Source: a virus (lineage: Duplodnaviria; Heunggongvirae; Uroviricota; Caudoviricetes). Taken from it: a stretch of 27,985 nucleotides of DNA. Position numbers and translations under genes: made by a program. The notes beneath the pieces were generated by a model. The model saw only the letters and a list, made by a program, of their open reading frames with translations. It was not told the DNA's origin and did no database searches. The stretch spans positions 1-27,985 of IMG/VR virus record IMGVR_UViG_2609459774_000007; one strand, given 5' to 3'. Below, piece after piece: positions 1 to 18,879 of this stretch (position 1 is the first letter of the stretch; each line of letters begins with the position of its first letter).

Positions 1-483
1 ATGACGAAGAAAAAAGCACATAAACCTGGTTCAGCGACCATCGCGCTTAACAAGCGCGCCCGTCACGAATACTTTATCGAAGAAGAGTTCGAAGCGGGAC
101 TTGCCCTGCAAGGCTGGGAGGTTAAATCCCTGCGCGCAGGAAAAGCCAATATCAGCGACAGCTACGTCCTTCTGCGTGACGGAGAGGCATTTCTGTTTGG
201 CGCTAACATCACGCCAATGGCCGTGGCCTCCACGCATGTGGTGTGCGATCCTACCCGTACCCGCAAGTTACTTCTCAACCAACGCGAACTGGACTCATTG
301 TACGGTCGCGTCAATCGAGAAGGCTATACCGTAGTGGCGCTCTCCCTGTACTGGAAAAATGCCTGGTGCAAAGTGAAAATCGGCGTCGCCAAAGGTAAAA
401 AACAGCACGATAAACGTTCAGATATCAAAGAACGCGAATGGCAGGTGGATAAAGCACGTATCATGAAAAACGCCCACCGTTAA
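1..483 (+). CDS. smpB: SsrA-binding protein SmpB (trans-translation factor)
   Basis: 160-aa ORF matching enterobacterial SmpB over its full length as I recall it; lies immediately upstream of the tmRNA gene, the conserved smpB-ssrA arrangement. Confidence 0.95.
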
Positions 484-639
484 ACCTGCACTCCAATTAT
501 TGACCAGTTCCTCACCGCGCCTCCCTCTCCGGCGGCGCGAATGAACATCTTATTGGCTATCACATCCGACACAAATGTTGCCATCCCATTGCTTAATCGA
601 ATAAAAATCAGGCTACATGGGTGCTAAATCTTTAACGAT

Positions 640-697
640 AACGCCATTGAGGCTGGTCATGGCGCTCATAAATCTGGTATACTTACCTTTACACATT
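640..697 (+). promoter_or_regulatory. putative ssrA promoter region
   Basis: A -10-like hexamer TATACT at 678-683 lies about 15 nt upstream of the mature tmRNA 5' end (698), consistent with a short processed leader; the -35 element is not clearly identifiable. Confidence 0.4.
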
Positions 698-1060
698 GGG
701 GCTGATTCTGGATTCGACGGGATTTGCGAAACCCAAGGTGCATGCCGAGGGGCGGTTGGCCTCGTAAAAAGCCGCAAAAAATAGTCGCAAACGACGAAAA
801 CTACGCTTTAGCAGCTTAATAACCTGCTTAGAGCCCTCTCTCCCTAGCCTCCGCTCTTAGGACGGGGATCAAGAGAGGTCAAACCCAAAAGAGATCGCGT
901 GGAAGCCCTGCCTGGGGTTGAAGCGTTAAAACTTAATCAGGCTAGTTTGTTAGTGGCGTGTCCGTCCGCAGCTGGCAAGCGAATGTAAAGACTGACTAAG
1001 CATGTAGTACCGAGGATGTAGGAATTTCGGACGCGGGTTCAACTCCCGCCAGCTCCACCA
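698..1060 (+). ncRNA. ssrA: tmRNA (transfer-messenger RNA, SsrA)
   Basis: 363-nt sequence starting GGGGCUGAUUCUGGAUUCGACGGG and ending ...GGUUCAACUCCCGCCAGCUCCACCA; the tRNA-like acceptor/T-arm 3' end and overall length match E. coli tmRNA; directly downstream of smpB. Confidence 0.95.
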
Positions 1061-1064
1061 AATA
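1016..1064. repeat. attachment-site direct repeat, copy 1 (3' end of ssrA; attL of the P2-like element)
   Basis: 49 bp (ATGTAGGAATTTCGGACGCGGGTTCAACTCCCGCCAGCTCCACCAAATA) repeated exactly at 12713-12761; this copy is part of the intact tmRNA gene. Confidence 0.85.
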
Positions 1065-1068
1065 AATC

Positions 1069-1103
1069 AAGGGGTTACGTGAAAGCGTAGCCCCTTTTTC
1101 TTT
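1069..1103 (+). terminator. Rho-independent terminator immediately after ssrA (supplied by the inserted element)
   Basis: 11-bp stem AAGGGGTTACG/CGTAGCCCCTT (one G-U pair) with a 6-nt loop, followed by a TTTTTCTTT run, starting 9 nt after the tmRNA CCA end. Confidence 0.6.
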
Positions 1104-1183
1104 GGTAGTGGCGGCAAAATGGCGACAGACTATTGCGTCCATCTTGCCTATCGCCATCTTGAAATCATGCAAAGAGGTTTCAC

Positions 1184-1666
1184 ATGGAAGAACTTCACTT
1201 TGTTTACATCAATGCAAATGGTCGTATCGGTGTTCACTCAATACAGAGCATCAGTTATAGCGAAAATCATATACAGGGCATTTGTAAGAACACCGATCGA
1301 ATAAAAACCTTCCGAAAAGACCGCATTCTTAAACAGTACGATTCACCAGAACAAGCCATTCAGGAATGCGCGTCATTCCTCCCCGAAAACTACTCACATC
1401 TCACTAAGCAGTCTGGTCCGAAAAAAAATACATTCGATGTGTGTTTCACCGGATTTAAGAAAGCAGATAAAGAAAGATTGGTTGATAAGGCGAATGAACA
1501 AGGATTAACGGTAAGAGCCTCTGTAACCCAAAGCCTTCAGATGCTCTGTTGCGGTTACAATGCAGGCCCATCGAAAGTATCGGCAGCCAGGATGAAAGGC
1601 ACAATCATCATAGATGAGCCTGGCTTTATACATTTTCTTGAAACGGGTGAGATCCCAGATGAATAA
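1184..1666 (+). CDS. small BRCT-domain protein (uncharacterised N-terminal domain plus C-terminal BRCT fold); prophage-end cargo
   Basis: 160-aa ORF with a good RBS (AGAGG 6 nt upstream). The C-terminal ~85 aa show the BRCT pattern seen in NAD-dependent ligase C-termini (FDVCFTGF ... GLTV ... GTIIIDEPGFIHFL). Reads convergent to ogr. Confidence 0.6.
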   Translation: MEELHFVYINANGRIGVHSIQSISYSENHIQGICKNTDRIKTFRKDRILKQYDSPEQAIQECASFLPENYSHLTKQSGPKKNTFDVCFTGFKKADKERLVDKANEQGLTVRASVTQSLQMLCCGYNAGPSKVSAARMKGTIIIDEPGFIHFLETGEIPDE

Positions 1667-1668
1667 AA

Positions 1669-1684
1669 CCCTGCCGTAGCAGGT
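1669..1684. terminator. possible bidirectional terminator hairpin between the convergent BRCT gene and ogr
   Basis: Short stem CCTGC/GCAGG with a CGTA loop between the two stop codons, flanked by A-rich (left) and T/C-rich (right) sequence; the stem is short, so this is weak. Confidence 0.3.
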
Positions 1685-1692
1685 TCTCTTTC

Positions 1693-1911
1693 TCAAAAAT
1701 TCATATGCCCCTGACCACCTGGCAATGGATGTGGAGGAGCAGTAGCAATCAGTGCGGGTGTCACAATAAACCGGACCACTGTTTCATGGGTAACAAAAGT
1801 GCTCCCGCAGTTAATATTTTGGCACTGGCAGTAACGCTCTTTGGTGCTTTCAGTTACTTGAAAACTGCTCCTTGTGTGTGCCGCATGACCACATTTTGGA
1901 CAACTCATCAT
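1693..1911 (-). CDS. ogr: Ogr/Delta-family zinc-finger late-gene transcription activator
   Basis: The ORF contains CPKCGHAAHTRSS...KERYCQCQNINCGSTF...PHPLPGGQ, the Cys4 zinc-finger pattern of P2 Ogr. The 87-aa track ORF (to 1956) probably over-extends; the likely start is one of the two internal Met codons at residues 16-17 (about 1911/1908). Confidence 0.85.
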   Translation of the reverse strand: MMSCPKCGHAAHTRSSFQVTESTKERYCQCQNINCGSTFVTHETVVRFIVTPALIATAPPHPLPGGQGHMNF

Positions 1912-1979
1912 ATCCAGATCCCTACCTTTGCTATCAGAATCATTGTAATGATACACATAATATCAATATTGAGAACACT

Positions 1980-3080
1980 TTATTCCATTTCAAGATCATC
2001 AATCCTCACTTCAAGCTCCAGACTGGTCGTAAAACCGTTATCCGGGCTGACGGTATGCGTCAGAGTCGTAATGGTCCATTCCGCATCATCTATCGGCTGT
2101 TTAAAACCACTGACTTTCACTGGCATTTCCGTGTAGAGATCTGCCCGACCTTCCGCCAGTTGTAGCGAGAATGACGCAACGCCGCGTTGCAGGCGTTCCC
2201 ACTGCATTTTCGCTGCCCGTTCAGCGTTACTCCGATTAGCATAGGTGCGATTAAGTACCAGCACGTTTTCATCCGTACCCACCAGGTAATCGCCCTGCTT
2301 CGCTTCCGGCTCTTTCTTCTGCTTCTTAGTCCTGCGCTTACGCTTCACCGTAGTGCTTTCTTTCTTCGCGGGTTCGCGGGTATGCAACCAGCTGGCAATT
2401 ACGCCCGTGTAGGCTCCGCGATCTGCCAGGGTAAAGCGGTGGCTGTCGCCGTCCTTGCGTGTGATAGTGATCACTGGCAGAGGTTTACCGCTGGCGCTTT
2501 TGCCCTGTCCCTGCCGGATGAATAACAGATTGCCATTTTTCACCGACGCAATAGCACCGTACTGGCGCGCCAGCCGCATCAAAAAACTGCCGTCACTCTC
2601 ATTGGTCTGGTCTATATGATCCACGGGCTTATCCGACAGATCTTTACCCAATGCCATCTTCAGTTTGTGCCGCGCAGCTATTTCCTTCACCACTTCCCCA
2701 ACGGTGGTCTTGTGCCACGACTTTTCACGGCGGGTATTCAGCGTTTCCCGAAAATCAGCACTTCGCGCCCGGATAGTCAGTCGGTCCGGTGCGCCAGTGT
2801 GTTCAATCTCGTCCACCGTGAATGCCCCTTTCGGGAAAAGCGGCTGCCCCTTCCAGCCCAGCGCCAGCGTAATGACCGCACCACGGCGCGGCAGCACTAT
2901 TTTTCCATCGGCGTCGTCCAGCTCCAGATCAAGCTGGTCCGCTTCAAAGCCCCGGTTATCCGTCAGCGTCAGCCTCATCAGGCGGTTATCCAGCACAGTG
3001 GTGATATCCCTGCCCTCAATACTGATGCTGAATGCGGGAGTTTTGTTGCCTTTGTTAAGCAGTTCAGAGCTGAAATTCAC
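1980..3080 (-). CDS. D: P2 gpD-like tail protein (late control gene D family)
   Basis: 366-aa ORF placed immediately upstream of ogr on the same strand, the conserved D-ogr arrangement at the end of the P2/186 tail operon; the length and position fit gpD. Confidence 0.8.
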   Translation of the reverse strand: MNFSSELLNKGNKTPAFSISIEGRDITTVLDNRLMRLTLTDNRGFEADQLDLELDDADGKIVLPRRGAVITLALGWKGQPLFPKGAFTVDEIEHTGAPDRLTIRARSADFRETLNTRREKSWHKTTVGEVVKEIAARHKLKMALGKDLSDKPVDHIDQTNESDGSFLMRLARQYGAIASVKNGNLLFIRQGQGKSASGKPLPVITITRKDGDSHRFTLADRGAYTGVIASWLHTREPAKKESTTVKRKRRTKKQKKEPEAKQGDYLVGTDENVLVLNRTYANRSNAERAAKMQWERLQRGVASFSLQLAEGRADLYTEMPVKVSGFKQPIDDAEWTITTLTHTVSPDNGFTTSLELEVRIDDLEME

Positions 3081-3418
3081 GACATCAGCCCTCCCACCGT
3101 TTTACTGATATCGCTTAAGGCAGATGTTGCCGTTTCCTGCAGATTATTCAGTTGCGCACTGAGATCACCGAACATATCGGACAGGGATTCATCCACCCGT
3201 TTGAGCGACAGGGTGAACTCAATCCGGCGCGGCATACCGTCGCGGAAAAACTCCGTTTTAGTCTGATTCAGTCCCTCAATCACATACATGCCGTAAATCG
3301 TGCCGCTGCCTTCAATCAGAGGCCATGCTTTCCCCTGTTCTGCCATCTGCTCCAGTGCCAGCAACGACAGCCTGCCGCCTGTTATCTCCGGCATAAGAAC
3401 ACCGGAAAGCGTCAGCAT
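3077..3418 (-). pseudogene. U: P2 gpU-like tail protein, N-terminally truncated fragment
   Basis: 113-aa ORF (TLSGVLMPEITGGRLSLLALEQMAEQGKAW...) matches the C-terminal two-thirds of gpU as I recall it; overlaps the D start by 4 nt as in intact tail operons; the N-terminal part is missing. Confidence 0.65.
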
Positions 3419-3459
3419 GTCGTTTTCCGGTCCCAGAAACTGCGTGGACGGACGTCGGT

Positions 3460-4185
3460 TTACCCGACTGTTTGCCGCATGTCGCCAGCTGCGTTGATAC
3501 TGCAGTTGTCTTCCTGCCAGTAGATGGACAGGTTATCCAGACGGGTGATCAGCAGCGCATTCGGCGGGAAGAACGGCGCACGCACGGCCTGCAGGCCACC
3601 CATGCGTTTCTGGCTGATGATCATATCGGCAGCCAGTTTTTCACTGTTTTCCTGCTCTTTGTTGACCAGCGGGAAATACTTGTCAGACAACAGTTCACGA
3701 CCGCAAATCACCACCAGACCGTCATCGTCCTGGTAAACCACGTCGATAAGCTCATTGACGGCATCCATCACCACAGCGTCCAGGTTGGCATATTCGCCAC
3801 CTTTCCCGACTTTCACCGCACCCGGAGTGGTTTCACCGCCCGTGGTGGTGCTGCCCATGACGTGATCCGGTGCATCCTCACGGATTTTCTGCAGCCAGCC
3901 TTTGTTCACATCCTGCAGCAGCGGGTTTTCGCTACGGTTGGAGGTTTTCGCACGCTTCACGCCGTTAAAGCCGATCATGATGCGGTCCAGTGCCTGACGT
4001 TTCACGATGGCGTCACGGATGCGCACCTGGAAATCCTGAAACTTCGCCCACAGATCCAGCTTCGCGTAGGTCAGCACCGTGTCAAAGTTGGTCTGCTCGC
4101 ATTTATATTCCACATCGACCATCAGGGTCGGATCGGTGAAGTGATCGCCCTTGAGCCTGCGCTGGCAAAATACACCCGACGCGGA
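3460..4185 (-). pseudogene. N: P2 gpN-like major capsid protein, internal fragment (both ends missing)
   Basis: The 220-aa ORF (3460-4122) aligns with the middle of P2 gpN (YKCEQTNFD...LDLWAKFQDFQVRIRDAIVKRQ...GFNGVKRAKTS...VISQKRMGGL...LSIYW). The frame extends upstream to a stop at 4186-4188 without N-terminal homology, and the C-terminus diverges after SIYW. Confidence 0.75.
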
Positions 4186-4540
4186 TTAGACCTGGATACC
4201 TACTGGTTTGTGCAATACGGTATGACAACCCAGCCGTATCAGTTCACGAAAGGCAGCATTTTTCATCTGATGGAACCCACTGTAGAGCCAGCCCCTTCTC
4301 TTCATCACTACACTCACTAGCCGCTACAAGCTTAAGAAAAAAATCAATGCGCTGGAGCTTCAAAGACTCCAAAAAATAGTCCTGCATCTTTCCTCCTATA
4401 ACACCACACGCAATACTGTATGTATAACCACTGTTTATATTTACAGTATATAATAATCTTACTGATGTAAAACGTTTTTTTACATTCATCAGCCTGATAT
4501 GCCTGGTATTATTAAGAGCACGAATTGTTAACCCGCGTAA

Positions 4541-6955
4541 TTAATACAGGTTCCGCCACTGATCATCTTCCTGCAAACGCTGGTTCCGATAGAAGATACG
4601 CAGGCCTGCTCCTGACGGAATACTGCCTCCGCGAAGGAGTAAATCGATCTCTTTCTCGCTGCCATCAAATCCTCTGGACTTCAGCTCATACACGAGCTGC
4701 AGTCGCTGATGGTCTGTAATTCGCTGTTTGTAGTCTTTACGCCGTTTCGGTTTCACCAGGCGTAACCTTGCTGCCAGTTCCCGGCGCTCTTTTTTGCTCA
4801 TACTGTGCAGGTAATCGTGCAACTCCTTGTCATCCATGCTGGTAATGTCCGTTCTGGGGTCCCCATCAGCTGATTTATCTTTCTCCTGTTGGTTCAAATT
4901 TTCAGCAAGGGGACAGTTATTGCCACGAGTCCAAGGGGCGCAAGCGCCCTGGTCGGCTGCCGCCTCCTGAACGTCAACGGCCTTACGAACCATTTTCCAC
5001 TTCACTGCATGAGTGCAGATCTTGCCCTCTGCAATGGGTGACCAGATGCCATAAATACGAATGCCGTGATCGCCATAGGCGGTCGGCTCTTCGTTGATTT
5101 CATAAGCGGTTCTGATCAGGTGATATTTGCGGGGAACCAGTACGCCGCCCTGCTTCATGATGTAGGTGGCAAAACAACCAGCATCAGCAGCAGCCAGGAT
5201 TGCATCAAGGCGCGGGTTATCCAGTACCGGCGCACCTGCTTTTTTGTCCCCCTGTTGCCTTGCCGCCTGACCAGCCAGCAATCGCAGTTCACGGTAAGCC
5301 TGACGCCCCGGAATGCCAAAGAAGCGGAATTGCTGAACACGATGCAGAGACGCCCAGGCATTAACGTATTCAGCATTATCACGCAGGGATTTCCCCGTTT
5401 CCTTGCTGATCTCGCCAGCCAGACCACGCCCGTCAATGTTCTTACTGATGTATTTCGCGATGTAGCTTGTTGGCGTACCTTTGCGCGGGTTAATCAACTC
5501 AGACTTAAAGCGCGGCCCAGTGTTATTGCCCAGCTCCTCGCGGTCTTCACGGATGGCAAACTTACGCAGTAATACAGTGATGGCGCGGCGGTCTTTTTTG
5601 CGCATAAAACACAACAGGTGCCAGTGAACTGTACCGTCATGATGCGGCTCAGCCACCCGCACGCCATACCAGCGCAATCCGGCTTTGTGCATCGCCTTAC
5701 GAAATGCAGCAAACATGCCGACCAGGTAATCACTACTTTGTCTTACCGTCGCATTTGTCCAGGTTGGGTTGGGCCTGCCGTTATTTAGCGTGGAATGGAA
5801 ACGTGACGGACAGGTGATGGTGTAGAAAACGGCACAGTCACTGCGCATTTCAGCGATAAGCTCCAGACCTTTAACACAGGCCATCATCTCATTGCGGCGA
5901 TGCGCCGGGTTGCTGCTGCTGGCGTTTACCACATCTTCCATATCCAGCGTGTCACCGTCTTCGTTCACCAGTTCATGAGAACGGAAAAACTCCAGCGACT
6001 TACGGCGCTGCTCACGTTTATGCATCACGGCTTCATAGCTGACATAGGGAGATGCTTTTTTGCTGACCAGACAGACAGCACGCAACTGCTCTTCCCGCCA
6101 TTCGCAACGCATCTTCCATAATTTCCTATACCACCAGTCGGCGCACAGCATACGCGCCAGCGAACCCGGAATGAGTTCATAGGGCACGGGTTTACGGCGG
6201 TTTCTTTTCCGACGGAGTTGCTCAAACGCAGGCGGGATGACATCCAGTCGCAGGGTTTCTGCTGCCACCTTTTCCCATGTCTTGCGGATTTCTTCTGGCT
6301 TAACATCATCGGTGGCGTACAAATCACCACAAGCGGCATCAAGACACATGCTCATATGCGCAGCGACAAGAGTAGACAGGCGTTTCACCTGATCCTGACT
6401 CATTTCAGGCAGGATCAGCAGGCCGTCCAGCCCTTCATGGCTTGCCATAAAGCGAAAAGAAGTGGATAGCTGACTCTCGCGTACATGCTCCAGTCGTTCC
6501 AGACATGGCTTAATCGTCTCACGCAAATAGCGGGAATAAGCCTTTGGCCTGCCCAGGCTGCTGAAGTATTCGATACGTTGCATCAGCGGCTTGCTGATGT
6601 GGGTGGGCTGGGCGCTGACATCTGCCAGAATGACCATGTCTGGGTTAAAACGCTGCTGCTCATGCGCCAGCTTTGCCCGACTAATGAGCTTATCCTGCTC
6701 CATTTCGCGCTGGACAGGATCACGGGATTCATTAAAGAAATAACGCTCCCAGACCTGATCACTCAGTGCCTCACGGCGCAGCAGTTCCTGCTCGTTATCG
6801 GCAGCGTACAGAGTGATCAGGTTTGAAAGCGCAGAAACCGGCGCAACTTCCGCCGGGTCCAGATAAGGGTTAATGGCCTTTTTCGGGCTGTTCCATGAGA
6901 ACGATGCGGAAGCCTCGTTAAAGCCGCAGCAGTTGTTCATATCGGCATGGTTCAT
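4541..6955 (-). CDS. A: P2/186 gpA-like rolling-circle replication initiation endonuclease
   Basis: 804-aa ORF with the HxH metal-binding motif (VHWHLL) and the paired-tyrosine motif YIAKYISK typical of phage gpA initiators; located between the early regulatory genes and the structural gene remnants. Confidence 0.85.
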
Positions 6956-7917
6956 GCACGTACTCCGTACACGGCAGAACTATCCACGCCACGCGAATAA
7001 TCAAATCCCACCCAGCAGCGCGGCCCGGAAACAGCGATGATTTCTGTTGCAGATTTACTCTCACCAGCTGCTACGCCGATGCTGCGTTTTGCCTTGATGT
7101 AGTGGTGAGTAAAATTGCGATACAGCGAACGGATCAGGGATGTGTCACTGTTAGAAATAATGACCGGATGTCCTTCTGATGACCGATGTTCAAGAACGGA
7201 TGCCAGGTGATACTGGTCATCTTCAGTGAAGCCGTCAGTGTGATAACCGGAAAACGTGCCGTCATACGGCGGATCGCAATACACCACATCCCCCGCCTTC
7301 AACATCGCCAGCGTTTCATCAAAGCTGGCGCAGATAAACGTTGCCCGCTGGGCTTTTTCTGCAAATGCGCGAATTTCTTTTTCAGGAAAATACGGATTTT
7401 TATAATTACCGTAGGGAATGTTGAAATGCCCGCTCTTGTTATAGCGACATAAACCACGGTAACCGTGACGATTGAGATACAGGAAATATACCGCTTTCAT
7501 GAAATCAGTAATTTCAGTTGAGTAATTAAACTCCTGCCTTATGTTGTAATAAGCCACCTCCCTGTTTGCTTCCTCAAATAAAGCTCTGGCGCGAGATATA
7601 AACGATTCACAATCAGCAGCAACCTTTTTATAGAGGTTGATTAAATCAGGATTAATATCCGCAACAAGATAGCTGGGGTAGTGGATCTCCTGCGCTTCGT
7701 TCTGGATTGCTTCAGCGGTCACACGCAGCAGTTCTGCCGCTTCGACGTGGTTTAGCTGGCGGGATGTGATATGACACGCAAGACTATCAAGGCGGGCAGC
7801 CATTGCTTCAGCCCTTGCCCGGCGTTCTTCCAGACGAGCCTCTGTCAGTAAAATATTAAGCCCTGCGTCATCCGGTCCGATTTTAGTCGTGAGGGTTTCA
7901 ATATTACGCATAATCAA
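6952..7917 (-). CDS. Dam-like N6-adenine DNA methyltransferase (D12 class) with a non-canonical N-terminus
   Basis: Residues ~85-300 align with E. coli Dam from the ADIN(S/P)DLI(S/N)LY segment through FLYLNR.GY.GLCRYN, PYFPE and the catalytic DPPY motif (VVYCDPPY). The first ~85 aa are unrelated and the KWAGGK/FxGxG region is not seen. Confidence 0.8.
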
Positions 7918-7978
7918 TTCTCCTGAATTTAGATAAAGGGATGCCCGGCGGGTTTACGCCATTAATTTCATTAGCTGG

Positions 7979-8320
7979 TTAATTCGGCATGGTTAGCCGT
8001 CTGGGAAATAAGCTCACCACTGCACGAAAATGATTCATTGCTTTAATCAACTCCCGCTTTTCGTCAGTGGTCAGCTCATTAATGCTGATGCTATGACGTT
8101 CAGCTGGAATTTTTGCCATAAAGAATATGGCAGCCAGTGCCCGTTTATTTTGTTCGCTATTAATATCCCGTGGATCACGCATATCTTTAATAAACTGCTC
8201 AAGCTCTGACTCAATATTAAGACCAAAAACTTTCGCTCTTAATTCCGCAATGTGATTAAGTCCATTCAGGCGTTCACCGGGGCTTAATGGAACAGTCGCC
8301 GCAGCGCCTTCAATAGCCAT
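7979..8320 (-). CDS. hypothetical prophage early protein (position equivalent to 186 dhr)
   Basis: 113-aa ORF on the early-operon strand between the cII/fil region and dam; no recognisable motifs. Confidence 0.45.
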   Translation of the reverse strand: MAIEGAAATVPLSPGERLNGLNHIAELRAKVFGLNIESELEQFIKDMRDPRDINSEQNKRALAAIFFMAKIPAERHSISINELTTDEKRELIKAMNHFRAVVSLFPRRLTMPN

Positions 8321-8514
8321 TTGTTCCCCCGTTTTTTCGTTGATAGTTCTGCCAACAATTCATCTTGCGAACGGCACGGATGCCAGCGTTTACCATCCTC
8401 ACCCATGATCCAGCCGTGACCGTAGTGCATTGCCGGACTTTGTTTTACCAGCAGCGATGCAAATGATGGTTCTTTCGTCAGCATAAGCACCTCACAGCAA
8501 ACCGAATGAAGCAC
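8284..8514 (-). CDS. hypothetical small early protein, possibly Fil-like
   Basis: 76-aa ORF directly downstream of cII in the position occupied by fil in phage 186; overlaps both neighbours, as is common in compact phage operons. Assignment is by position only. Confidence 0.4.
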   Translation of the reverse strand: MLHSVCCEVLMLTKEPSFASLLVKQSPAMHYGHGWIMGEDGKRWHPCRSQDELLAELSTKKRGNKWLLKALRRLFH

Positions 8515-9001
8515 CGAGGCCAGTCACGGTATCAACTGCACTCGCCATCGCAGGATTAGCCTGTAAACGGGCCTGCAATGAAACAGCCGCCAGCGCCATC
8601 AGTCGTGTAACAGAGTTAATGCTGCTGATCGCATCACGACGGCCTGCACTGGTTTTTACATCGCCAGAAACCGCCCCTGCCGCAACACGCCCGATCTCTG
8701 CGGTTGCACTCATGACGTAATGTGGCAGTTTCTCTTTTGCTACCTCATTAATCGGTACACATGGCAGGCAGTGAATCTGTGCCAGAAAACCATCTATCAG
8801 CGTTGAGTCTTCTGTCAGATCGGTAAGCAGCCAGATTTCTGGCGCATTGAGCTGATGCGGTTGATCTGGGTTGAGTTTGTTTCGCAGTGTCTGAACATTC
8901 ATTCCTGCACGTTCTGCCAGCTTCGCCATATTGTGATGTAGTGCAAAAGCTCTACAGGCTTCATCAAAATGCGGGTGTTTGGAAATCTTATAATCAAACA
9001 T
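8492..9001 (-). CDS. cII: 186-type CII-like transcriptional activator
   Basis: 169-aa ORF, the length of phage 186 CII, with an N-terminal HTH-like segment; sits in the apl-cII-fil order downstream of the divergent cI/apl switch. Confidence 0.7.
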   Translation of the reverse strand: MFDYKISKHPHFDEACRAFALHHNMAKLAERAGMNVQTLRNKLNPDQPHQLNAPEIWLLTDLTEDSTLIDGFLAQIHCLPCVPINEVAKEKLPHYVMSATAEIGRVAAGAVSGDVKTSAGRRDAISSINSVTRLMALAAVSLQARLQANPAMASAVDTVTGLGASFGLL

Positions 9002-9033
9002 GCTACCCCCTTAGAAAGTTCTCATAATTGAAC

Positions 9034-9276
9034 TTACTTACCAACAATGACGCGGAAGTTGGAATGACCGAGGGATTCACGGACCTGATCGGTTTTGTAC
9101 ATTAAATAACGCAGGCTTACGCGGCCTTTGTTTTTTTCTTTCTTGACCATGTATTTAGCAAGCTGACCATGGTGAATTTTTTGATACACGGAGCCGCGGG
9201 AGATACCTTCCCATTCCGCGAACTCAGCAGGCGTTGCCATCTCTTTTGGTACACGAATTGAAATATCAGTACTCAT
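9034..9276 (-). CDS. Apl/Cox-family small HTH protein (putative excisionase / lytic-promoter regulator)
   Basis: 80-aa ORF transcribed divergently from the repressor gene, first gene of the early lytic operon; HTH-like segment ATPAEFAEWEGISRGSVYQKIHHGQL. Confidence 0.55.
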   Translation of the reverse strand: MSTDISIRVPKEMATPAEFAEWEGISRGSVYQKIHHGQLAKYMVKKEKNKGRVSLRYLMYKTDQVRESLGHSNFRVIVGK

Positions 9277-9392
9277 AGTGCAGTATCTCTTAGTTTGGTT
9301 TCGTTTTATCTTGTTTTATGTGGTTTGGTTTTGCTTTTCAAACCATAAATGGATATTAGGATCACTTTTTATATACGTCAAGAGGTTTGATT
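9277..9392. promoter_or_regulatory. divergent lysis-lysogeny switch region (apl/cI intergenic; candidate operators and promoters)
   Basis: 116-bp AT-rich intergenic region between divergent apl and cI, with repeated GTTTGGTTT / TGGTTTGGTTTTG motifs and an inverted AAACCA copy. Confidence 0.5.
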
Positions 9393-10025
9393 ATGAGTTT
9401 AATAAAGGCGGGAAATGATAGTGGTGGGCGCGATGCAATTAACAGGCTTATTAAGGCTTACAACTTCAGCTCACGACAGCAGCTCTGCGAACATCTGGAA
9501 GTATCAAAAAGCACTATGGCTAACAGATACTTAAGGGATAGCTTTCCTGCCGAATGGGTAATTCAATGTGCCCTTGAAACAGGAGCTTCCCTTCTATGGC
9601 TGGCTACTGGTCAAGGAGATATGTATGCGTGTGAGAACGAAGAAACAAATCTCAAAAATGAACCTCCTGTCACTGTAAGACCACTTTCTAAGATCGTTGC
9701 TCCTAGCATCAAACGTGTTGAACTGAAGAACGGCGAACTGCAGCCAAGTGATGAAATTCTTCTTGATAGCAGCCTGCTCGATGGTGACTCATCCAACGCT
9801 TTATTTGTTAAAACAGCTAATAATAGCTTTGTAGTGGATACGTCCGTTAAACAAGTCAGTAATGGCTTCTGGTTAGTCGATATGGACGGAGTTAAAAGCA
9901 TCGTTAAAATTGCGCGCATACCCGGAAACAAAATAGTAGTTAACCAAGATGACACTTCATTTGAATGTTCTGTAGATGATGTGGAAGTCGTAGGACGTGC
10001 AGTCAAAGTAATCAAGAACCTCTAA
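9393..10025 (+). CDS. cI: 186-type CI-like immunity repressor
   Basis: About 210 aa with an N-terminal HTH (VSKSTMANRYLRD...) and a C-terminal oligomerisation-like region; immediately upstream of int as in 186-type prophages. The track ORF starts at a TTG (9387); ATG at 9393 has AGAGG 7 nt upstream. Confidence 0.75.
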   Translation: MSLIKAGNDSGGRDAINRLIKAYNFSSRQQLCEHLEVSKSTMANRYLRDSFPAEWVIQCALETGASLLWLATGQGDMYACENEETNLKNEPPVTVRPLSKIVAPSIKRVELKNGELQPSDEILLDSSLLDGDSSNALFVKTANNSFVVDTSVKQVSNGFWLVDMDGVKSIVKIARIPGNKIVVNQDDTSFECSVDDVEVVGRAVKVIKNL

Positions 10026-10028
10026 CTT

Positions 10029-11048
10029 ATGACCATCAGAAAACAGCCGAACGGAAAATGGTTGTGTGAGTGCTATCCCAATGGACGCAATGGTAAGCGC
10101 GTGCGTAAGCAATTTGCTACCAAAGGCGAAGCCATTGCGTTTGAAAGCTTCACAATGGAAGAAGTGAACAAAAAACCGTGGTTAGGAGAAAAGGATGATC
10201 GGCGACACCTATCAGAATTAATTGAGCTTTGGTATTCCCTGTATGGTCAGACACTCGCAGACCCCAAGCGCCTCATGGCGAAACTTAGAATTATCTGTAA
10301 TGGTCTAGGCGACCCCATCGCCTCAGAACTGACAGCCGGTGACTTTACGAAATACCGCGAAGCACGGTTAAAAGGTGAAGTACGAAATGAAGATGGGACG
10401 CTTATGTCGCCCGTTAAGCCCCGCACGGTAAACCTCGAACAGCGCAATCTATCATCGGTGTTCGGTACATTAAAAAAACTAGGACACTGGTCAGCACCAA
10501 ACCCGCTGGCAGGACTTCCAACCTTCAAAATTGCCGAAGGTGAGCTGGCTTTTCTTTCCATGGACGAAATCAAGCGCCTGTTGGCTGCATGTGCTGAATC
10601 TCAAAGCCCCAGCTTATTAATGATTGCCAAAATATGTTTGGCTACCGGCGCACGTTGGAGCGAAGCCGAAAACCTGCATGGCCACCAAATATCGAAATAC
10701 CGAATTACTTATATAAAGACAAAAGGTAAGAAAAACAGAACAGTACCGATATCACAGGAACTATATGACGAACTCCCCAAGCACAGAGGGAAGTTATTCA
10801 CGCCATGCAGAAAAGCCTTTGAGCGTGCAGTAAAGCGGGCCGGTATTGAACTTCCGGAGGGGCAATGCACCCATGTATTACGTCATACATTCGCCAGCCA
10901 TTTTATGATGAACGGCGGAAACATACTGGTACTACGCGATATTCTGGGCCATGTGGATATAAAAATGACGATGATTTATGCCCACTTTTCCCCTGACCAC
11001 CTAGAAGATGCGGTAACAAAAAACCCACTGTTTAATTTAAAATGGTAA
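10029..11048 (+). CDS. int: P2-type tyrosine integrase
   Basis: 339-aa ORF with clear similarity to P2 Int (PxGRNGKRxRxxF...; catalytic-region HxLRHTFASHFMMNGG...MxYAHF); transcribed toward the attR repeat. Confidence 0.9.
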   Translation: MTIRKQPNGKWLCECYPNGRNGKRVRKQFATKGEAIAFESFTMEEVNKKPWLGEKDDRRHLSELIELWYSLYGQTLADPKRLMAKLRIICNGLGDPIASELTAGDFTKYREARLKGEVRNEDGTLMSPVKPRTVNLEQRNLSSVFGTLKKLGHWSAPNPLAGLPTFKIAEGELAFLSMDEIKRLLAACAESQSPSLLMIAKICLATGARWSEAENLHGHQISKYRITYIKTKGKKNRTVPISQELYDELPKHRGKLFTPCRKAFERAVKRAGIELPEGQCTHVLRHTFASHFMMNGGNILVLRDILGHVDIKMTMIYAHFSPDHLEDAVTKNPLFNLKW

Positions 11049-12583
11049 ATTTAACGATGAAAAGATTGAAATCAGTTTCCGATGCAGTTATCCAACTCAG
11101 ATTAAATGCGGTAAAAGCAAGTATTCAAAGCGTCAATCCAAACGAGTTTATAACACATTGCCTTGATTATAACCTCCAGAAATTTAACAATCAGCTTGAA
11201 ATGTTACAACACCTACCATGGGTTGTGAATTTATGCATTAAATGGTCCGCCAGTGCGCTGGGTAAAAAACGGAAATTTAAACATATTGACAGACCTGGTG
11301 CTGTCAGGTTGCTACAACGAGCATATGAGGAACTAAGTATAATTCCAACTGGTCTGGAAAATATAGACAAAGGGATTAACTTTTTCCTTAGAAATACGTT
11401 ATATCAACAAGGTATTTATCAAAGATTAGATGCTTTAAATACAATTAGCAGACAAGTTTTCTTGTTTTCTTCCTTAGATGACAACAATAGAATCAAGCGT
11501 AGATTCAAAGAACTTACTGATGTTGATATAAACGATTTTCTAAAACTATCATTTGTGTTAGTATCACTCGTTACCTTACAAGCACCAGTAAAGAAAATAA
11601 CAATAGATTCTTTCGCAGCTCTTTACTCCGTAATACCTAAAGATACAATCGAGAAATTTCTGAATACTATATCTATCCCTTACGAAGAACTAGCTCGGTT
11701 TTGCTGTACAAAAGATAATGAGACACCTTTAGTAGAATATTATGCTCCATCGCCTTTCTTAGAAAAACCTTTCATCAAATTCGAAGGAAATTATCACCAA
11801 ATACATACGCAGCTAACTTCGACCAGTATACAAACCTTTATATATGATTTGCTTCGCAGAGATGATGCAGAATCGTTCATGGACAAATTTGGGCGAGTTT
11901 TCGAAAATGCAGTCAACCAGCTATTAGATGAAAGTGGAATTGCTTATATTGCTGAAGGAAATTTAAAAGAATATCTACCTCAAGAGAATAAAGTTGTAGA
12001 TTTTCTACTACCTCATGATGAAGCTAACATTTTCATCGATGCTAAAGGTGTTGAGATAAACCAAAAGGGAATGGTTACACTACGACCAGGGGATATTTCT
12101 GCCAATATAAAAAGCTCCGTATTAAAAACTATAGAACAAGCACACTCAGTAAATAGAGAGCTAATTAAAAAAGGTAACCAAAATTTTTCTTTTAAAAAAG
12201 AGTCCTACATTTTATGTCTTACTTATAAAAATTTATTCCTTGGAAATGGTACATTTCTAAATAAATCCTATGCTAACATCGAAATGAAAAAAATCCGAGA
12301 TAGGCATTCAGAAGAATATCAAATACCTGATGAGAACATTTTCTGCATATCATTTGAGGAATTCGAGTATCTGCTATCTTCTTGCAAGGAATACTCAAAA
12401 CCTGTACATGAGGTACTGCGAGAAGCTGTAGTTAGAAACCAAACACCATCAAGTGCAGTTTTCCTTTTTGCACATCATATCCGTGACTCATTCCCCAAAA
12501 TACGTTCATCTGAGATCGTCAGGCTCGCAGGCTTGAGCGAGATCAACCATATCGTTGAACGATTAGAGCAAGCTGGCTCTTGA
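11042..12583 (+). CDS. uncharacterised 513-aa cargo protein with a putative C-terminal PD-(D/E)xK nuclease core
   Basis: Long AT-rich ORF between int and attR, overlapping the int stop (alternative start ATG 11057). The C-terminal half has E...VVDFLLP...IFIDAKG, fitting the E/D/(D/E)xK arrangement of PD-(D/E)xK nucleases; the N-terminal ~270 aa have no recognised motifs. Confidence 0.6.
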   Translation: MVNLTMKRLKSVSDAVIQLRLNAVKASIQSVNPNEFITHCLDYNLQKFNNQLEMLQHLPWVVNLCIKWSASALGKKRKFKHIDRPGAVRLLQRAYEELSIIPTGLENIDKGINFFLRNTLYQQGIYQRLDALNTISRQVFLFSSLDDNNRIKRRFKELTDVDINDFLKLSFVLVSLVTLQAPVKKITIDSFAALYSVIPKDTIEKFLNTISIPYEELARFCCTKDNETPLVEYYAPSPFLEKPFIKFEGNYHQIHTQLTSTSIQTFIYDLLRRDDAESFMDKFGRVFENAVNQLLDESGIAYIAEGNLKEYLPQENKVVDFLLPHDEANIFIDAKGVEINQKGMVTLRPGDISANIKSSVLKTIEQAHSVNRELIKKGNQNFSFKKESYILCLTYKNLFLGNGTFLNKSYANIEMKKIRDRHSEEYQIPDENIFCISFEEFEYLLSSCKEYSKPVHEVLREAVVRNQTPSSAVFLFAHHIRDSFPKIRSSEIVRLAGLSEINHIVERLEQAGS

Positions 12584-12712
12584 TTGCACAATTGCAAATT
12601 GGCGACAAATTGGCGGCAGAGCATTAAAAATGCGTAAAATAAACAAACACCAAATAATACTAATATGCTGTTTTAAAACATAAATATATGTTTTTATCAT
12701 AATAATAATGGT

Positions 12713-12761
12713 ATGTAGGAATTTCGGACGCGGGTTCAACTCCCGCCAGCTCCACCAAATA
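12713..12761. repeat. attachment-site direct repeat, copy 2 (partial ssrA 3' end; attR of the P2-like element and attL-type junction of the P4-like island)
   Basis: Exact 49-bp repeat of 1016-1064; the sequence upstream of it is unrelated to ssrA, so this is only a partial ssrA copy. Confidence 0.85.
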
Positions 12762-12791
12762 TTGATGTACTGAAGTTCAGTAAAGTCTACT

Positions 12792-12826
12792 AAGCCCGCA
12801 CAGCACAAGCTCTGCGGGCTTTTTTA
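12792..12826 (+). terminator. Rho-independent terminator downstream of the second att copy
   Basis: GC-rich stem GCCCGCA/TGCGGGC with a ~12-nt loop, followed by TTTTTT. Confidence 0.55.
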
Positions 12827-12923
12827 CGTCTATTGTAGTCTAGTGAGAATTGCTGAGAACTACGAGTTATGGCACCCTGAATGGGACCCACGAAGATGGG
12901 TCCTAAAATCGAGGGTCCCAAAC

Positions 12924-14153
12924 ATGGCCAAAATCGCTAAGAAGCTCACTGACACTGAAATCAAAAGCACCAAACCTGCCGAAAAAGAGGTTAACCTTTT
13001 TGACGGCGATGGTTTGCTGTTGCGAATCGCTCCCCTGGCGAAGGGAGGGAAGAAAAATTGGTATTTCAGATATGCAGTGCCTGTGACCAAAAAGCGAACT
13101 AAGGTGAGCTTAGGAACCTATCCTCACCTTACACTTGCGAAGGCACGAGCTTTACGTGATGAATACTTGTCGTTGCTTACAAATGGTATAGACCCCCAAG
13201 TTCATAACAACCAAAAAGCCAATGCACTGAAAGATGCCACGGAACATACATTTCAAGCAGTAGCCAAGAAGTGGCTTGATGAGAAAGTCAAAACGTCAGG
13301 CATCTCCCAAGATCATGCTAACGACATCTGGCGAAGCCTAGAGAGAAATATCTTTTCCACATTGGGTGATACCCCAATTAAGGAGATTCGCCCTAAAATG
13401 CTTAAACAGCATTTAGAACCCATAGAAAAACGAGGTGTCCTTGAAACACTTCGCCGCATCATATCCCGCCTGAATGAAATTTTCCGCTATGCAGCAACAG
13501 AAGAACTCATAGAATTCAACCCGGCAGACAACCTGGGGCAACGGTTCAGCAAGCCAAAAAAACAGAATATGCCAGCATTACCCCCTTCCGAACTCCCTCG
13601 CTTCTTGGTTGCTCTAAACAATGCTTCTATCCGTTTGGAAACAAGGCTACTGATTGAGTGGCAACTTCTCACATGGGTTCGCCCAGGTGAAGCTGTTCGC
13701 ACAAGATGGTCAGATATTGATATTGAAACTGGCATGTGGAACATCCCGGCGGAGTTTATGAAAATGAAGAAGCCTCACAAAGTTCCACTGAGCAAAGAAG
13801 CTTTGCGAGTTTTGGATTTAATGAAAGTCATCAGCGGGCATAGAGAGTGGGTGTTCCCCAGTATCAAAGCTCCACTCAATCACATGCATGAACAAACAGC
13901 TAATGCGGCCATAATCCGTATGGGTTTCGGAGGTGAGCTTGTAGCTCACGGTATGCGATCCATTGCTAGAACGGCTGCTGAGGAGTCTGGCAAGTTTAGG
14001 ACTGATGTCTTAGAAGCCGCCCTTGCCCACTCGAAGAAAGATGAAATAATTGCAGCCTACAATCGTGCAGAGTATCTCACTGAACGGGTGGTTCTCATGC
14101 AATGGTGGAGTGACTATGTTTCGTCTCAAAAATGCAAAGTTATTGCCGCATAA
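12924..14153 (+). CDS. P4/IntA-family tyrosine integrase
   Basis: Strong similarity to E. coli CP4-57 IntA as I recall it (LTDTEIK..KP, DIWRSLER, LETLRR, PLS.EAL.(V/I)L, HG.RSIA.TA, LAH, AYNR.(E/D)YL..R...MQWW.D). The track ORF starts at 12843; the homology-supported start is ATG 12924 (MAKIAKKLTDTEIK). Confidence 0.9.
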   Translation: MAKIAKKLTDTEIKSTKPAEKEVNLFDGDGLLLRIAPLAKGGKKNWYFRYAVPVTKKRTKVSLGTYPHLTLAKARALRDEYLSLLTNGIDPQVHNNQKANALKDATEHTFQAVAKKWLDEKVKTSGISQDHANDIWRSLERNIFSTLGDTPIKEIRPKMLKQHLEPIEKRGVLETLRRIISRLNEIFRYAATEELIEFNPADNLGQRFSKPKKQNMPALPPSELPRFLVALNNASIRLETRLLIEWQLLTWVRPGEAVRTRWSDIDIETGMWNIPAEFMKMKKPHKVPLSKEALRVLDLMKVISGHREWVFPSIKAPLNHMHEQTANAAIIRMGFGGELVAHGMRSIARTAAEESGKFRTDVLEAALAHSKKDEIIAAYNRAEYLTERVVLMQWWSDYVSSQKCKVIAA

Positions 14154-14215
14154 CTCTCCCATGATGGATTAACTATCTTGATTTAGTTAAAGAATTAATA
14201 ATCACACCATTAACC

Positions 14216-14265
14216 TATGTGGACTAAGCATAGCCATTTACAAATGGGGACATTGAGTCCACATA
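14216..14265. repeat. 50-bp nested inverted repeat (candidate recombinase or ParB binding/crossover site)
   Basis: Outer 10-bp arms TATGTGGACT / AGTCCACATA flank a 30-bp spacer that itself contains CCATTT-AC-AAATGG (6-bp arms around a non-palindromic AC centre); between intA and the serine recombinase gene. Confidence 0.5.
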
Positions 14266-14435
14266 ACGAAAGCTGTCGGTCATATCAGCTAAATAATTCA
14301 CATCTCTTCTCGATTATCATACACCTCGAAGATCTACCAAATTCGCTCTAATCAATGATAAAACAGTTGAATTCGGTTGAAATTTGATCAATTTTATCCA
14401 CTACATTGTATTGAATCATCCATGAGGTTTCGTGC

Positions 14436-17771: not shown

Positions 17772-18879
17772 TCATGGTTTTATATAGCCTAAATAAACCA
17801 AGAAGTATACTTACACAACGACCTTCACGCCGAAGAAGCTGTCAGATACGCCAGCAACCAAAGCATTACGTTTAAGTGTCAGTCATTGATACGAAGGGAT
17901 AACTGCGTATCAGCAGCCGGACATTGAGTCGAATAAAGGCTGGTAGAGAGGGACAGTTCTGTGTCATCGGGAGATTCGTCAGAAACATCAGCGGCAGAAC
18001 AGATGAACCAGCAATTGGTAGTGCACAGAAAACTCTCCAGTATTTAATTATTCAACTTAACACTAAAAAAAATCACATAGTTAATATCATAATTTTTCTT
18101 TGGTCTACGTATGCGAGAGATATTGTGGCTTTAACCGGGTATTAGGAGTCGTTTCAGATAAAAGATGTTCTTCGATTCGACTGGACTTGGTAATAGCAAT
18201 AAGTAATCGTTAATATTGAAGGACGAAAGGCTACTTCAAAACAAAGTAACCTTTCCAATATTCCCATCTATGGGACAAGTGGTACATTAACTGCACATAG
18301 TGCAGGATACATATGACATAAAACTTTTTATTTATGGCATACATTATAAATAACTTGTATTTTATGAATGTCAATAGGTTCTTGTTTAATACTTTTAAAA
18401 TTATTAATTGATTGTTTTTATTATAGCTTCGCTTGTACAAGCGAAGATCCTATTGTTCTTGAATGAATAATGCCAATTATAAGAGAAGCAAGGGCTAACT
18501 CTGCGAAGCCGCTGCGCTTGCTTCTTCGAGTTCCCCTTGCTTTTCTGCCCTTCGGTTATAAAAGAAGCCAAACTGCTACCAACCTTGAATCTCTATATTT
18601 TTGAATAGACAAACATTACCCGCTCCCTTAATCACCACTATCAAAAATAAAAAATCATCTTACAAATAACCCCATACACATCATTTTAGATTGCGACCTT
18701 ATTAAATTAAAAATTCAACCTTAGATGGAATTTAATGTACAAGGAATGTCCTACTGTAACGGAGAATTTTAAACATTAAAAATTACAACTATGGTTTGTC
18801 ATAGCCTGTACATCTATTCACCTCATGCATATGCACTAAGAAAGCTTTTTTGAATACTGGAGTTGTCCCTGCTAAAACG

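Follow-up and report, generated by a model that had tools for sequence, protein, structure and literature searches.

The window, a 27,985-nt stretch of DNA comprising all of an IMG/VR virus record classified in the Caudoviricetes, carries between positions 1016 and 12761 a series of P2/186-type phage genes bordered by two copies of the 3′ end of the Escherichia coli ssrA gene. Both hallmarks of site-specific integration are present, in the form of a tyrosine integrase and perfect direct att repeats, and an Rfam scan of the window returned tmRNA as its sole match. The repeats and the full-length genes between them are as follows:

1016-1064, plus strand: att repeat at the ogr end, 49 nt made up of the ssrA/tmRNA 3′ end plus 4 nt, identical to 12713-12761
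1184-1666, plus strand: full-length cargo ORF of 160 aa, lying between att and ogr, with 98% identity to Cartapus gp32 (see below) and a weak BRCT-like C-terminus
1693-1911, minus strand: ogr, late-gene activator with an Ogr/Delta zinc finger, 72 aa, full length
1980-3080, minus strand: gene D (Phage_GPD), full-length tail/baseplate hub gene of 366 aa, now cut off from its late operon
4541-6955, minus strand: gene A, encoding a full-length 804-aa replication initiator endonuclease (Phage_GPA)
7979-8320, minus strand: DUF5347 gene, early lytic operon, full length
8284-8484, minus strand: fil, early lytic operon, full length
8492-9001, minus strand: cII, early lytic operon, full length
9034-9276, minus strand: apl/cox, early lytic operon, full length
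9393-10025, plus strand: cI repressor of the 186 type (Phage_CI_repr and Phage_CI_C), 210 aa, full length
10029-11048, plus strand: tyrosine integrase (int), 339 aa, full length
11057-12583, plus strand: gapS1-family anti-phage gene, cargo between int and att, full length
12713-12761, plus strand: att repeat at the int end, 49 nt, copy of the ssrA 3′ end

The hallmark Pfam matches in this region were those of the P2-type major capsid (PF05125, 2e-96), GpU (PF06995, 3e-26), GPD (PF05954, 4e-27), Ogr/Delta (PF04606, 2e-20) and GPA (PF05840, 2.5e-126) families, with the profiles for N (capsid) and U covered only partly. The region shares with coliphage 186 its type of CI (PF07022/PF16452), CII (Phage_CP76) and Fil. 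When we compared it with Escherichia phage Cartapus (Peduoviridae, Elveevirus; NC_070909), we found five collinear blocks in the same orientation, ending at abrupt breakpoints and all 96–97% identical to the phage at the nucleotide level. The retained blocks follow the P2-like gene order (att-ogr-D-U...N..Q-cos-...A...cI-int-att), and the order ogr-D-U...N...Q...gp44-A-dam...cII-apl-cI-int is shared by Cartapus and related P2/186-like phages of Klebsiella, Salmonella and E. coli (RE2010, Fels-2 group). The original prediction had described a minus-strand order of A, a middle fragment of N, a fragment of U, D and ogr, and this order was borne out. Cartapus also has cargo slots beside ogr and beside int, whereas the int-adjacent cargo is gapS1 in the prophage and a RES-domain gene in Cartapus, and the two cI products share 58% identity and are of different immunity types.

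What the prophage lacks relative to Cartapus, and to its intact relatives in general, is approximately 22.7 kb (close to the ~20 kb first proposed) that include every morphogenesis, lysis and packaging gene as well as cos. Cartapus DNA from 5560 to 20971 and from 1546 to 4930 is absent from the window, where we likewise found nothing matching the Cartapus cos ends. In tblastn searches of the window, we detected no match for the Cartapus DUF4145, P, O, M, L, T, RES, traR/dksA, dinI, gp46 or gp47 proteins, and only partial matches for N, Q, U and Dam. With the capsid, tail, lysis and terminase genes and cos all gone, the element can neither form particles nor be packaged by a helper phage. The remaining DNA is a silent, vertically inherited block comprising cI, int, apl, cII, fil, A, ogr and D, plus the cargo genes gapS1 and the 160-aa ORF. 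The earlier description of a gutted prophage, incapable of making particles but with its regulatory and cargo genes kept, thus holds, given the nucleotide collinearity with an intact phage and the partial coverage of the N and U profiles. From these comparisons, we estimate a probability of about 90% that positions 1016-12761 represent an 11.7-kb cryptic (defective) P2/186-like prophage of the Peduoviridae, inserted in the ssrA 3′ end of E. coli and reduced by four internal collinear deletions, which would have taken it from about 34.4 kb to its present 11.7 kb.

The first two of these deletions, which we call J1 and J2, left fragments of the capsid, tail and portal genes:

3507-3508: J1, joining U (Cartapus 20972) to N (Cartapus 5559), gpU codon 18 to N codon 299, with 1-nt microhomology
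3077-3507, minus strand: U′, gpU codons 18-161 of 161
3508-4135, minus strand: N′, codons 91-299 of 352 of the major capsid gene (Cartapus capsid as reference)
3460-4122, minus strand: chimeric 220-aa ORF, beginning at an internal N Met, crossing J1 and stopping out of frame in U-derived DNA
4133-4135: J2, joining N (Cartapus 4931, codon 91) to the portal gene Q (Cartapus 1545), with 3-nt microhomology (TCG)
4133-4277, plus strand: Q′, 145-bp piece from within the portal gene, approximately codons 120-167 of 344

At J1, some 15,413 bp containing M, L, the lysis genes, all tail genes through T, the U 5′ end and the N 3′ end were lost, and at J2 some 3,388 bp containing the N 5′ end, scaffold gene O, terminase gene P and the 5′ part of Q; the comparator for both is a 96–97% identical relative and not the true ancestor, so that these lengths are estimates. 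N′, which had been correctly recognized as a middle fragment, covers positions 90-289 of the 327 in PF05125 and directly adjoins the U fragment. For the latter, gpU codons 18-161 were matched from 3511 to 3080, such that 89% of U is still present, with no start codon before an internal Met at 3418 and a largest ORF of 113 aa (3077-3418). No Shine-Dalgarno sequence was found upstream of the chimeric 220-aa ORF, and a promoter and terminator scan of positions 1000-5000 gave promoter-like sites at chance level (3 found, 3.2 expected), and none of N′, U′ and D has a convincing promoter.

The original prediction had called for alignment with an intact phage to map the endpoints and look for microhomology at the junctions; with Cartapus, this alignment resolved four junctions (J1–J4), each with 1–4 nt of microhomology. 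It had inferred at least two deletions, and deletion was indeed the process, but the two junctions that it named were an undercount. One had been placed at 3419-3462 from ORF ends and in fact lies at 3507/3508, while the other, placed near 4150-4190, is really two, at 4133-4135 (N′ to Q′) and 4274-4277 (Q′ to the gene downstream of A), with the 145-bp portal fragment between them having been overlooked. Junctions with such short microhomology are usually attributed to replication slippage or end-joining, and each of the deletions would have arisen through illegitimate (non-homologous) joining at these 1–4 nt.

Since the source is a draft contig, we considered whether the junctions could be assembly artefacts, or whether the N-like and U-like ORFs could be true full-length members of shorter protein families. 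The draft state of the contig was the sole point that we found in favor, and both ideas are effectively refuted: the same junctions recur in over 20 isolates and gut metagenomes that were assembled independently, the microhomology is far below any assembler k-mer, the N and U Pfam profiles are covered only in part, and homology to the full-length genes continues in the DNA flanking each ORF. The interpretation of both ORFs as fragments therefore stands.

The third junction, J3, falls in the gene immediately downstream of A:

4274-4277: J3, joining the portal fragment to codon 39 of a 62-aa gene, with 4-nt microhomology (AACC, plus strand)
4271-4387, minus strand: remnant of the 62-aa gene (Cartapus gp44) downstream of A, 5′ 39 codons, truncated by J3; by position a tumA-like antirepressor gene
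4430-4448, minus strand: LexA box (TACTGTAAATATAAACAGT, a perfect match), lying about 40 nt ahead of the truncated 62-aa gene

Relative to otherwise near-identical elements in other assemblies (e.g., L006), J3 removed 3,590 bp: the rest of the portal fragment, the gene for a 778-aa AAA_13/PDC-S06 ATPase, the cos region, a dinI/tumB-like gene and the 3′ portion of the 62-aa gene. The cos-like region lies inside the 3,590 bp that L006 has and the window is missing. A LexA box followed by a small gene and then a dinI homologue, downstream of A, is an arrangement shared with 186, Fels-2 and PSP3, and the split tum layout is that of Fels-2 and PSP3 (PMC3121763). The dinI homologue, annotated as TumB or tum in relatives, is present in these relatives and in the near-identical elements but deleted in the window, and it is the only part of the operon that matches PSP3 tumB at the DNA level. 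A tblastn search of 50,697 phage records with the 62-aa product of the small gene gave no match to either 186 Tum or PSP3 TumA, and the window copy of this gene is cut short at codon 39. We regard the 62-aa protein as a putative antirepressor on the basis of its position and the LexA box. Because this LexA-controlled, Tum-like operon is truncated, SOS inducibility has probably been lost through J3.

The fourth junction altered dam:

7679-7680: J4, a 355-bp deletion relative to Cartapus and E. coli Ecol_AZ147, with 2-nt microhomology
6952-7911, minus strand: in-frame DUF2732::Dam fusion, DUF2732 residues 1-77 followed by Dam residues 44-285

The deleted segment comprised a traR/dksA-like gene and the dam 5′ end (Dam residues 1-43, with motifs KWAGNK and EPFAGS). 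In agreement with this, the Dam portion first matched at profile position 40 of 253 (Pfam), 44 of 267 (TIGR00571) and 46 of 271 (NF008152), and its score of 235.8 bits was below the 441-bit equivalog cutoff. The DPPY motif is still present in the fusion, but the N-terminal AdoMet-binding motif (FxGxG type) is missing, and for this reason the fused methylase is probably inactive. Thus, while int, cI, apl, cII, A, D and ogr are full length, as had been predicted, dam is not intact as had also been supposed.

Index blocks of independent assemblies carrying the exact N′::U′ ORF numbered at least 44, and those with the exact DUF2732::Dam fusion at least 47; all carriers that we read had the element beside ssrA/smpB or beside another prophage at that site. 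J1, J2 and J4 co-occurred in every assembly read. Dozens of these assemblies lack J3 and are otherwise colinear with the window, with 3,590 extra bp at that position and 99.4–99.95% identity; such intermediates (e.g., GCA_021646645.1, L007) keep cos, dinI, the full 62-aa gene and the PDC-S06-type ATPase. The ORF spanning J3 turned up in no assembly other than GCA_000703925.1, whose sequence shows 100% identity to the window and is the window's own contig. Since J1, J2 and J4 are present without J3 in dozens of other assemblies, J3 is the latest deletion and arose in the window's own strain, with the other three common to a widely sampled E. coli lineage; by the same comparison, at least two deletion events were separated in time.

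Further states of decay were seen at the same site. Ecol_AZ147 carries a single D′|A′ deletion, with an intact dam and no J4; its identity to the window is 99.9% across the early region that the two share and, as for the intermediates, within 99.4–99.95% for shared DNA in general. In a metagenome contig (L009), ogr and most of D are missing as well, and a related prophage at the same ssrA att site, in MS20649, shows a T|dinI junction. These siblings show that such deletions recur. They also bear on the possibility that all or most of the junctions date from one catastrophe, for instance an excision, replication or repair episode that went wrong after a failed induction. The constant company of J1, J2 and J4 would fit such an event, as would the small islands that N′ (628 bp) and Q′ form between large deletions, which is what multi-break repair predicts. 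However, J3 is demonstrably later than the other junctions, Ecol_AZ147 has its near-identical early region without J4, and every fragment remains in its original order and orientation, and we therefore consider a single event improbable.

Neither the final nor the intermediate structure was found among 5,426 complete E. coli genomes, where no place covered ≥80% of window positions 3300-4500 and the best matches were intact N genes. A two-piece match in MSB1_9I proved to come from another prophage, located elsewhere in the genome, whose N|Q deletion is unrelated to the present one. In IMG/VR, a 30-mer spanning J1 occurred in one contig (L023), of the intermediate form, and a 30-mer spanning J3 matched no contig; IMG/VR includes predicted prophages, so its matches are uninformative on packaging. 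Over 629 nt, N′ matches intact N genes of other E. coli with 100% identity. The original prediction had left a choice between retention of regulatory and cargo functions and recent decay, and the latter is better supported by this identity, by the near-identical intermediates and by the restriction of J3 to the window's own contig.

Selective retention of cI and gapS1 is nevertheless plausible. GapS1 scored 401.6 bits against NCBIfam NF047931 (cutoff 320), covering model positions 1-455 of 455, and its GAPS1 homologues have been shown by experiment to be anti-phage; PADLOC 2023, which lacks a GapS1 model, matched neither GapS1 nor the N′ ORF. The repressor was likely kept in that its loss would de-repress the harmful fil and A, and cI and GapS1 may also shield the host from other phages. 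Taken further, the element could be a selectively maintained (domesticated) defense and immunity island rather than a product of simple decay, with cI conferring superinfection immunity against homoimmune P2/186-like phages, GapS1 causing capsid-triggered dormancy, and orphan Ogr, D or the truncated capsid ORF perhaps interfering with incoming P2-like phages. The retention of the int-cI-apl-cII-fil block and of cargo at both ends in the window, the intermediates, L009, Ecol_AZ147 and MS20649 would agree with this, as would the GapS1 score and the wide distribution of the remnant. Yet the copies are 99.4–100% identical, and the carriers differ by only 0–39 substitutions in clustered, recombination-like patches that give no power to a test for purifying selection. 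The lineage also keeps shedding pieces, including the candidate defense ATPase (PDC-S06), D and ogr; the N′ ORF has neither a ribosome-binding site nor a late promoter, in a region where promoter-like sites are at chance level; and toxicity of de-repressed fil and A explains the retention of cI equally well. On balance, we find selective maintenance of the whole island rather unlikely.

Decidedly more speculative is the idea that the J1+J2+J4 predecessor (~15.3 kb, with cos, A/ori, int, apl, cI, ogr and both att sites) was a helper-dependent mini-P2 satellite and perhaps a defense island (cI immunity, GapS1, PDC-S06), of which the window would be a copy just grounded by loss of cos and of the SOS antirepressor, with cI, gapS1 and perhaps ogr, D and N′ under selection. 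If this were true, the mini-P2 would be a satellite derived by deletion from the very family that supplies its helper, and P2/186-like phages could package it as multimers.

Our preferred reading, a cryptic prophage worn down by successive deletions, has a counterpart in the P2 remnant of E. coli K-12, which is far more reduced than the one at ssrA and is not known to carry int, cI or A. That remnant lies at the cyaR site and is listed as “ogr-D′” in a published prophage table (PMC3032704). Both are P2-family prophages cut by deletion, in K-12 down to the att-proximal ogr/D end, whereas the ssrA remnant, besides occupying a different site, still has its early region in full, D intact and an att site at each end.

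For annotation, the region is best treated as a single cryptic P2/186-like prophage with pseudogenes N′, U′ and Q′, a truncated gp44 and a dam fusion; to list independent “capsid,” “tail” and “methylase” genes here would be wrong. The prophage fits standard stepwise decay and leaves current views of that process unchallenged (e.g., PMC7744054; PMC6379469). Within a single prophage lineage at a single att site, at least six independent microhomology-mediated deletions can be traced, with intermediates sampled. They point to an order in which a P2-like prophage is grounded, the structural genes going first and, later and in the window's strain, cos and a putative SOS-induction module, while the repressor-integrase block and the terminal defense cargo persist throughout the decay.

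The window opens with smpB (1-483) and the ssrA/tmRNA gene (698-1060), and phage DNA begins at 1016. Perfect 49-nt direct repeats (ATGTAGGAATTTCGGACGCGGGTTCAACTCCCGCCAGCTCCACCAAATA), one at the ssrA 3′ end (1016-1064) and the other at 12713-12761, delimit the element to 1016-12761, 11.7 kb vs. 33.4 kb in an intact relative. Megablast matched 74 phage records, the best being Escherichia phage Cartapus (NC_070909; Peduoviridae, Elveevirus), which covers 79% of window 1000-12000 at 94.6% identity; close relatives occupy the ssrA site in many E. coli chromosomes.

According to the original prediction, a fragment of capsid gene N abuts a fragment of tail gene U, followed by D and ogr. Pfam searches identified these genes, together with A:

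1693-1956, minus strand: Ogr/Delta (E = 2e-20; profile 2-47 of 47)
1980-3080, minus strand: Phage_GPD (E = 4e-27; profile 27-302 of 305)
3077-3418, minus strand: GpU (E = 3e-26; profile 45-120 of 120 only)
3460-4122, minus strand: P2-family major capsid (E = 2e-96; profile 90-289 of 327 only)
4541-6955, minus strand: Phage_GPA (E = 2.5e-126; profile 1-321 of 321)

By tblastn with Cartapus proteins, D (366/366), ogr (72/72) and A (804/804) were complete, as were the 160-aa ORF, int, cII, fil, DUF2732 and apl/cox, the last being 100% identical to Cartapus. Capsid N (codons 91-299 of 352), gpU (codons 18-161 of 161), portal Q (about codons 118-171 of 344) and gp44, a 62-aa gene downstream of A in Cartapus (codons 1-39), were partial, and Cartapus DUF4145, P, O, M, L, T, RES, traR/dksA, dinI, gp46 and gp47 had no tblastn match in the window. 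With N and U partial and D and ogr full length, the predicted arrangement is therefore correct, far beyond chance; the partial profile and protein coverage excludes that the N-like and U-like ORFs are full-length members of shorter families.

Blastn against Cartapus resolved the remnant into five collinear blocks, all in the same orientation:

1016-3507 (Cartapus 23463-20972): cargo ORF, ogr, D and U fragment
3507-4135 (Cartapus 5559-4931): N fragment
4133-4277 (Cartapus 1545-1401): 145-bp piece of the portal gene
4274-7680 (Cartapus 31927-28522): 5′ part of gp44, A, and dam without its 5′ end
7679-11050 (Cartapus 28168-24793): DUF2732 through int

The blocks meet at four deletion junctions:

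J1, 3507/3508: U to N, about 15,413 bp deleted, microhomology 1 nt
J2, 4133-4135: N to Q, about 3,388 bp deleted, microhomology 3 nt (TCG)
J3, 4274-4277: Q to gp44, 3,590 bp deleted (measured against near-identical intermediates), microhomology 4 nt (AACC)
J4, 7679-7680: dam to DUF2732, 355 bp deleted (against either Cartapus or the 99.9%-identical Ecol_AZ147 copy), microhomology 2 nt

The alignment to an intact phage that had been proposed as a check thus mapped the endpoints and revealed microhomology of 1-4 nt at every junction. The element has indeed been gutted, at four junctions where at least two deletions had been envisaged, and the positions first suggested (3419-3462 and 4150-4190), which were derived from ORF ends, were misplaced. 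The N frame runs across J1 into U-derived DNA, where it is out of frame with U and meets a stop at 3460. From an upstream stop to the Met at 3418, the frame of U offers no ATG, GTG or TTG. The deletions total ~22.7 kb, which with the remaining 11.7 kb gives ~34.4 kb, a normal P2-like genome size. They would have arisen by RecA-independent illegitimate recombination at the short microhomologies.

The 355-bp deletion created an ORF (6952-7911, minus strand) joining DUF2732 residues 1-77 in frame to Dam residues 44-285; this range comes from comparing the sequences directly, and the tblastn alignment gives 40-285. The missing Dam segment, which in Cartapus reads MSTILKWAGNKTANMSELKKHLPAGPRLVEPFAGSCAVMMETD, contains the KWAGNK and PFAGS motifs. 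D12-class Dam enzymes bind AdoMet through an FxGxG-type motif, and because the N-terminal AdoMet-binding motif is missing, the fusion is probably inactive. Among the genes previously listed as intact (int, cI, apl, cII, A, dam, D and ogr), int, apl, cII, A, D and ogr were full length by tblastn, and dam proved to be this N-terminally truncated fusion. Automatic annotation would name it "DNA adenine methylase" despite the lost motifs.

Exact-sequence matches to the 220-aa N-U ORF and the 319-aa DUF2732-Dam fusion were present in at least 44 and at least 47 index blocks of public assemblies, respectively, the carriers being E. coli drafts and human-gut metagenome assemblies. One contig, JNPW01000028.1 of GCA_000703925.1, was 100% identical to window 1-13000. 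The other aligned contigs reaching the J3 site were colinear at 99.4-99.95% identity and carried 3,590 bp more exactly at J3. Besides a stretch that matches the joined Cartapus cos ends at 92% identity, this additional DNA holds a dinI homologue, the remainder of the 62-aa gene, a longer (220-aa) portal fragment and a gene for a 778-aa AAA_13 ATPase that hits PADLOC candidate system PDC-S06 (8.5e-267). Exact-sequence look-up placed the J3-spanning ORF only in the window's own contig. The absence of J3 from otherwise colinear relatives, together with this confinement, shows that J3 is the latest, strain-specific deletion and the one that took cos, and that J1, J2 and J4 are older and lineage-wide. 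The window's J1-J3 arrangement occurred in 0 of 5,426 complete E. coli genomes.

The intermediate form (contig L006, 6259-9849; also L007, L008, L011, L013, L014 and the IMG/VR contig L023) represents a common predecessor of ~15.3 kb that keeps the cos-like region, A, int, apl, cI, ogr and both att sites, and that could in principle be packaged by a helper phage. Its PDC-S06-type ATPase gene lies in the P2 "hotspot" adjoining cos, and is split into two ORFs in some copies. Other relatives at the ssrA site have decayed differently: in metagenome contig L009, window 1761-3010 is gone, taking ogr and most of D (2 nt of microhomology); Ecol_AZ147, 99.9% identical in the shared early DNA, has a single junction between D and A fragments (3 nt) with traR-dam intact; and MS20649 has a tape-measure/dinI junction.

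The truncated 62-aa gene starts at an ATG at 4387 preceded by AGGAGG, and immediately upstream lies a perfect LexA box, TACTGT-N8-ACAGT (4430-4448), the sole match in the window (0.31 expected by chance). LexA box, 62-aa gene and dinI homologue follow in order in L006 (6044-6578; box at window 4430-4448), and the annotation of relatives calls this homologue TumB, tum or "SOS induction modulator." Tum of phage 186 is an antirepressor under LexA control with a DinI-like second half; in Fels-2 and PSP3 tum is split, the antirepressor lying upstream and the DinI homologue downstream (PMC3121763). The layout resembles this split tumA/tumB operon of 186-like phages, although the 62-aa protein has no detectable similarity to 186 Tum or PSP3 Tum. 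The window's repressor is of the 186 CI type (PF07022/PF16452). As judged by position and regulation, J3 probably destroyed the SOS-induction module.

Retention of functions and recent decay had both been offered as explanations. Several E. coli have intact N genes that match the 629-nt N fragment at 100% identity, and differences among carriers (L008, L009, L012, L019 and L022 vs. the window) are few and grouped in short patches (2058-2261, 5834-5954, 6572-6644 and 8196-8681); both observations point to recent, ongoing decay, and the carrier sample lacks power to test for selection. Such clustering resembles the outcome of recombination with other P2-like prophages more than that of mutation in situ, and suggests that other P2-like phages or prophages have acted on the cryptic prophage by gene conversion.

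A second integrative island follows in tandem (12843-27985), directly after the int-end att copy, and many E. coli genomes carry it at 100% identity:

12843-14153: P4-type integrase (NF007246)
14436-15992: large serine recombinase
15982-17771: two ParB/RepB-like genes, in a 30-34% GC stretch
19368-20915, 20912-22105 and 22164-25403: type I R-M system (hsdM, hsdS and hsdR)
26633-27502: ankyrin-repeat protein, after the R-M system

In L011 (GCA_019373645.1), a lambdoid-type prophage (13222-20663; integrase with Arm-DNA-bind_2, S24 repressor) sits right past the remnant's att boundary, in place of the window's smpB-ssrA. The ssrA site appears to accumulate tandem elements. Cargo genes occupy both prophage ends (int side, 11057-12583; ogr side, 1184-1666). 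On the int side the window has a GapS1-family anti-phage gene (NCBIfam score 401.6 bits), Cartapus a RES-domain gene and MS20649 a different hypothetical gene; on the ogr side, the MS20649 gene differs from the window's 160-aa ORF, whose weakly BRCT-like C-terminus resembles the end of PADLOC PDC-S48. On this evidence, both att-proximal slots look like exchangeable cargo hotspots.

The claim that the element can no longer make particles held: P, O, M, L and T are unmatched, N, U and Q fragmentary, and cos gone. With this gene content, it can neither build nor fill a capsid nor lyse the cell, and it offers no cos to a helper phage. Under CI it would be transcriptionally silent apart from cI/int and cargo genes. 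CI may have been kept because without it two proteins would be de-repressed, the division inhibitor Fil and A, which acts in nicking and replication. Excision would be possible in principle, since both att sites survive and int and apl are intact; its trigger has probably been lost. In E. coli MSB1_9I (L003, NZ_LR890508.1, 12899-13569), an unrelated P2-like prophage at another locus, adjoining rcdA, has lost its scaffold gene, terminase gene and portal 5′ end, with N full length; head-gene deletions seem common in E. coli P2-like prophages.

The original prediction was therefore right in outline and wrong on junction number, junction positions and dam. The gutted prophage is real and now resolved to the base, yet ordinary: textbook prophage grounding, in which lytic-function genes are preferentially lost and integrase and host-beneficial genes kept (PMC7744054; PMC6379469), the closest named analogue being the "ogr-D′" P2 remnant of E. 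coli K-12 (PMC3032704). Capsid-triggered dormancy has been demonstrated for the GapS1 family (bioRxiv 10.1101/2023.03.28.534373), and GapS1 together with CI immunity may be of benefit to the host.
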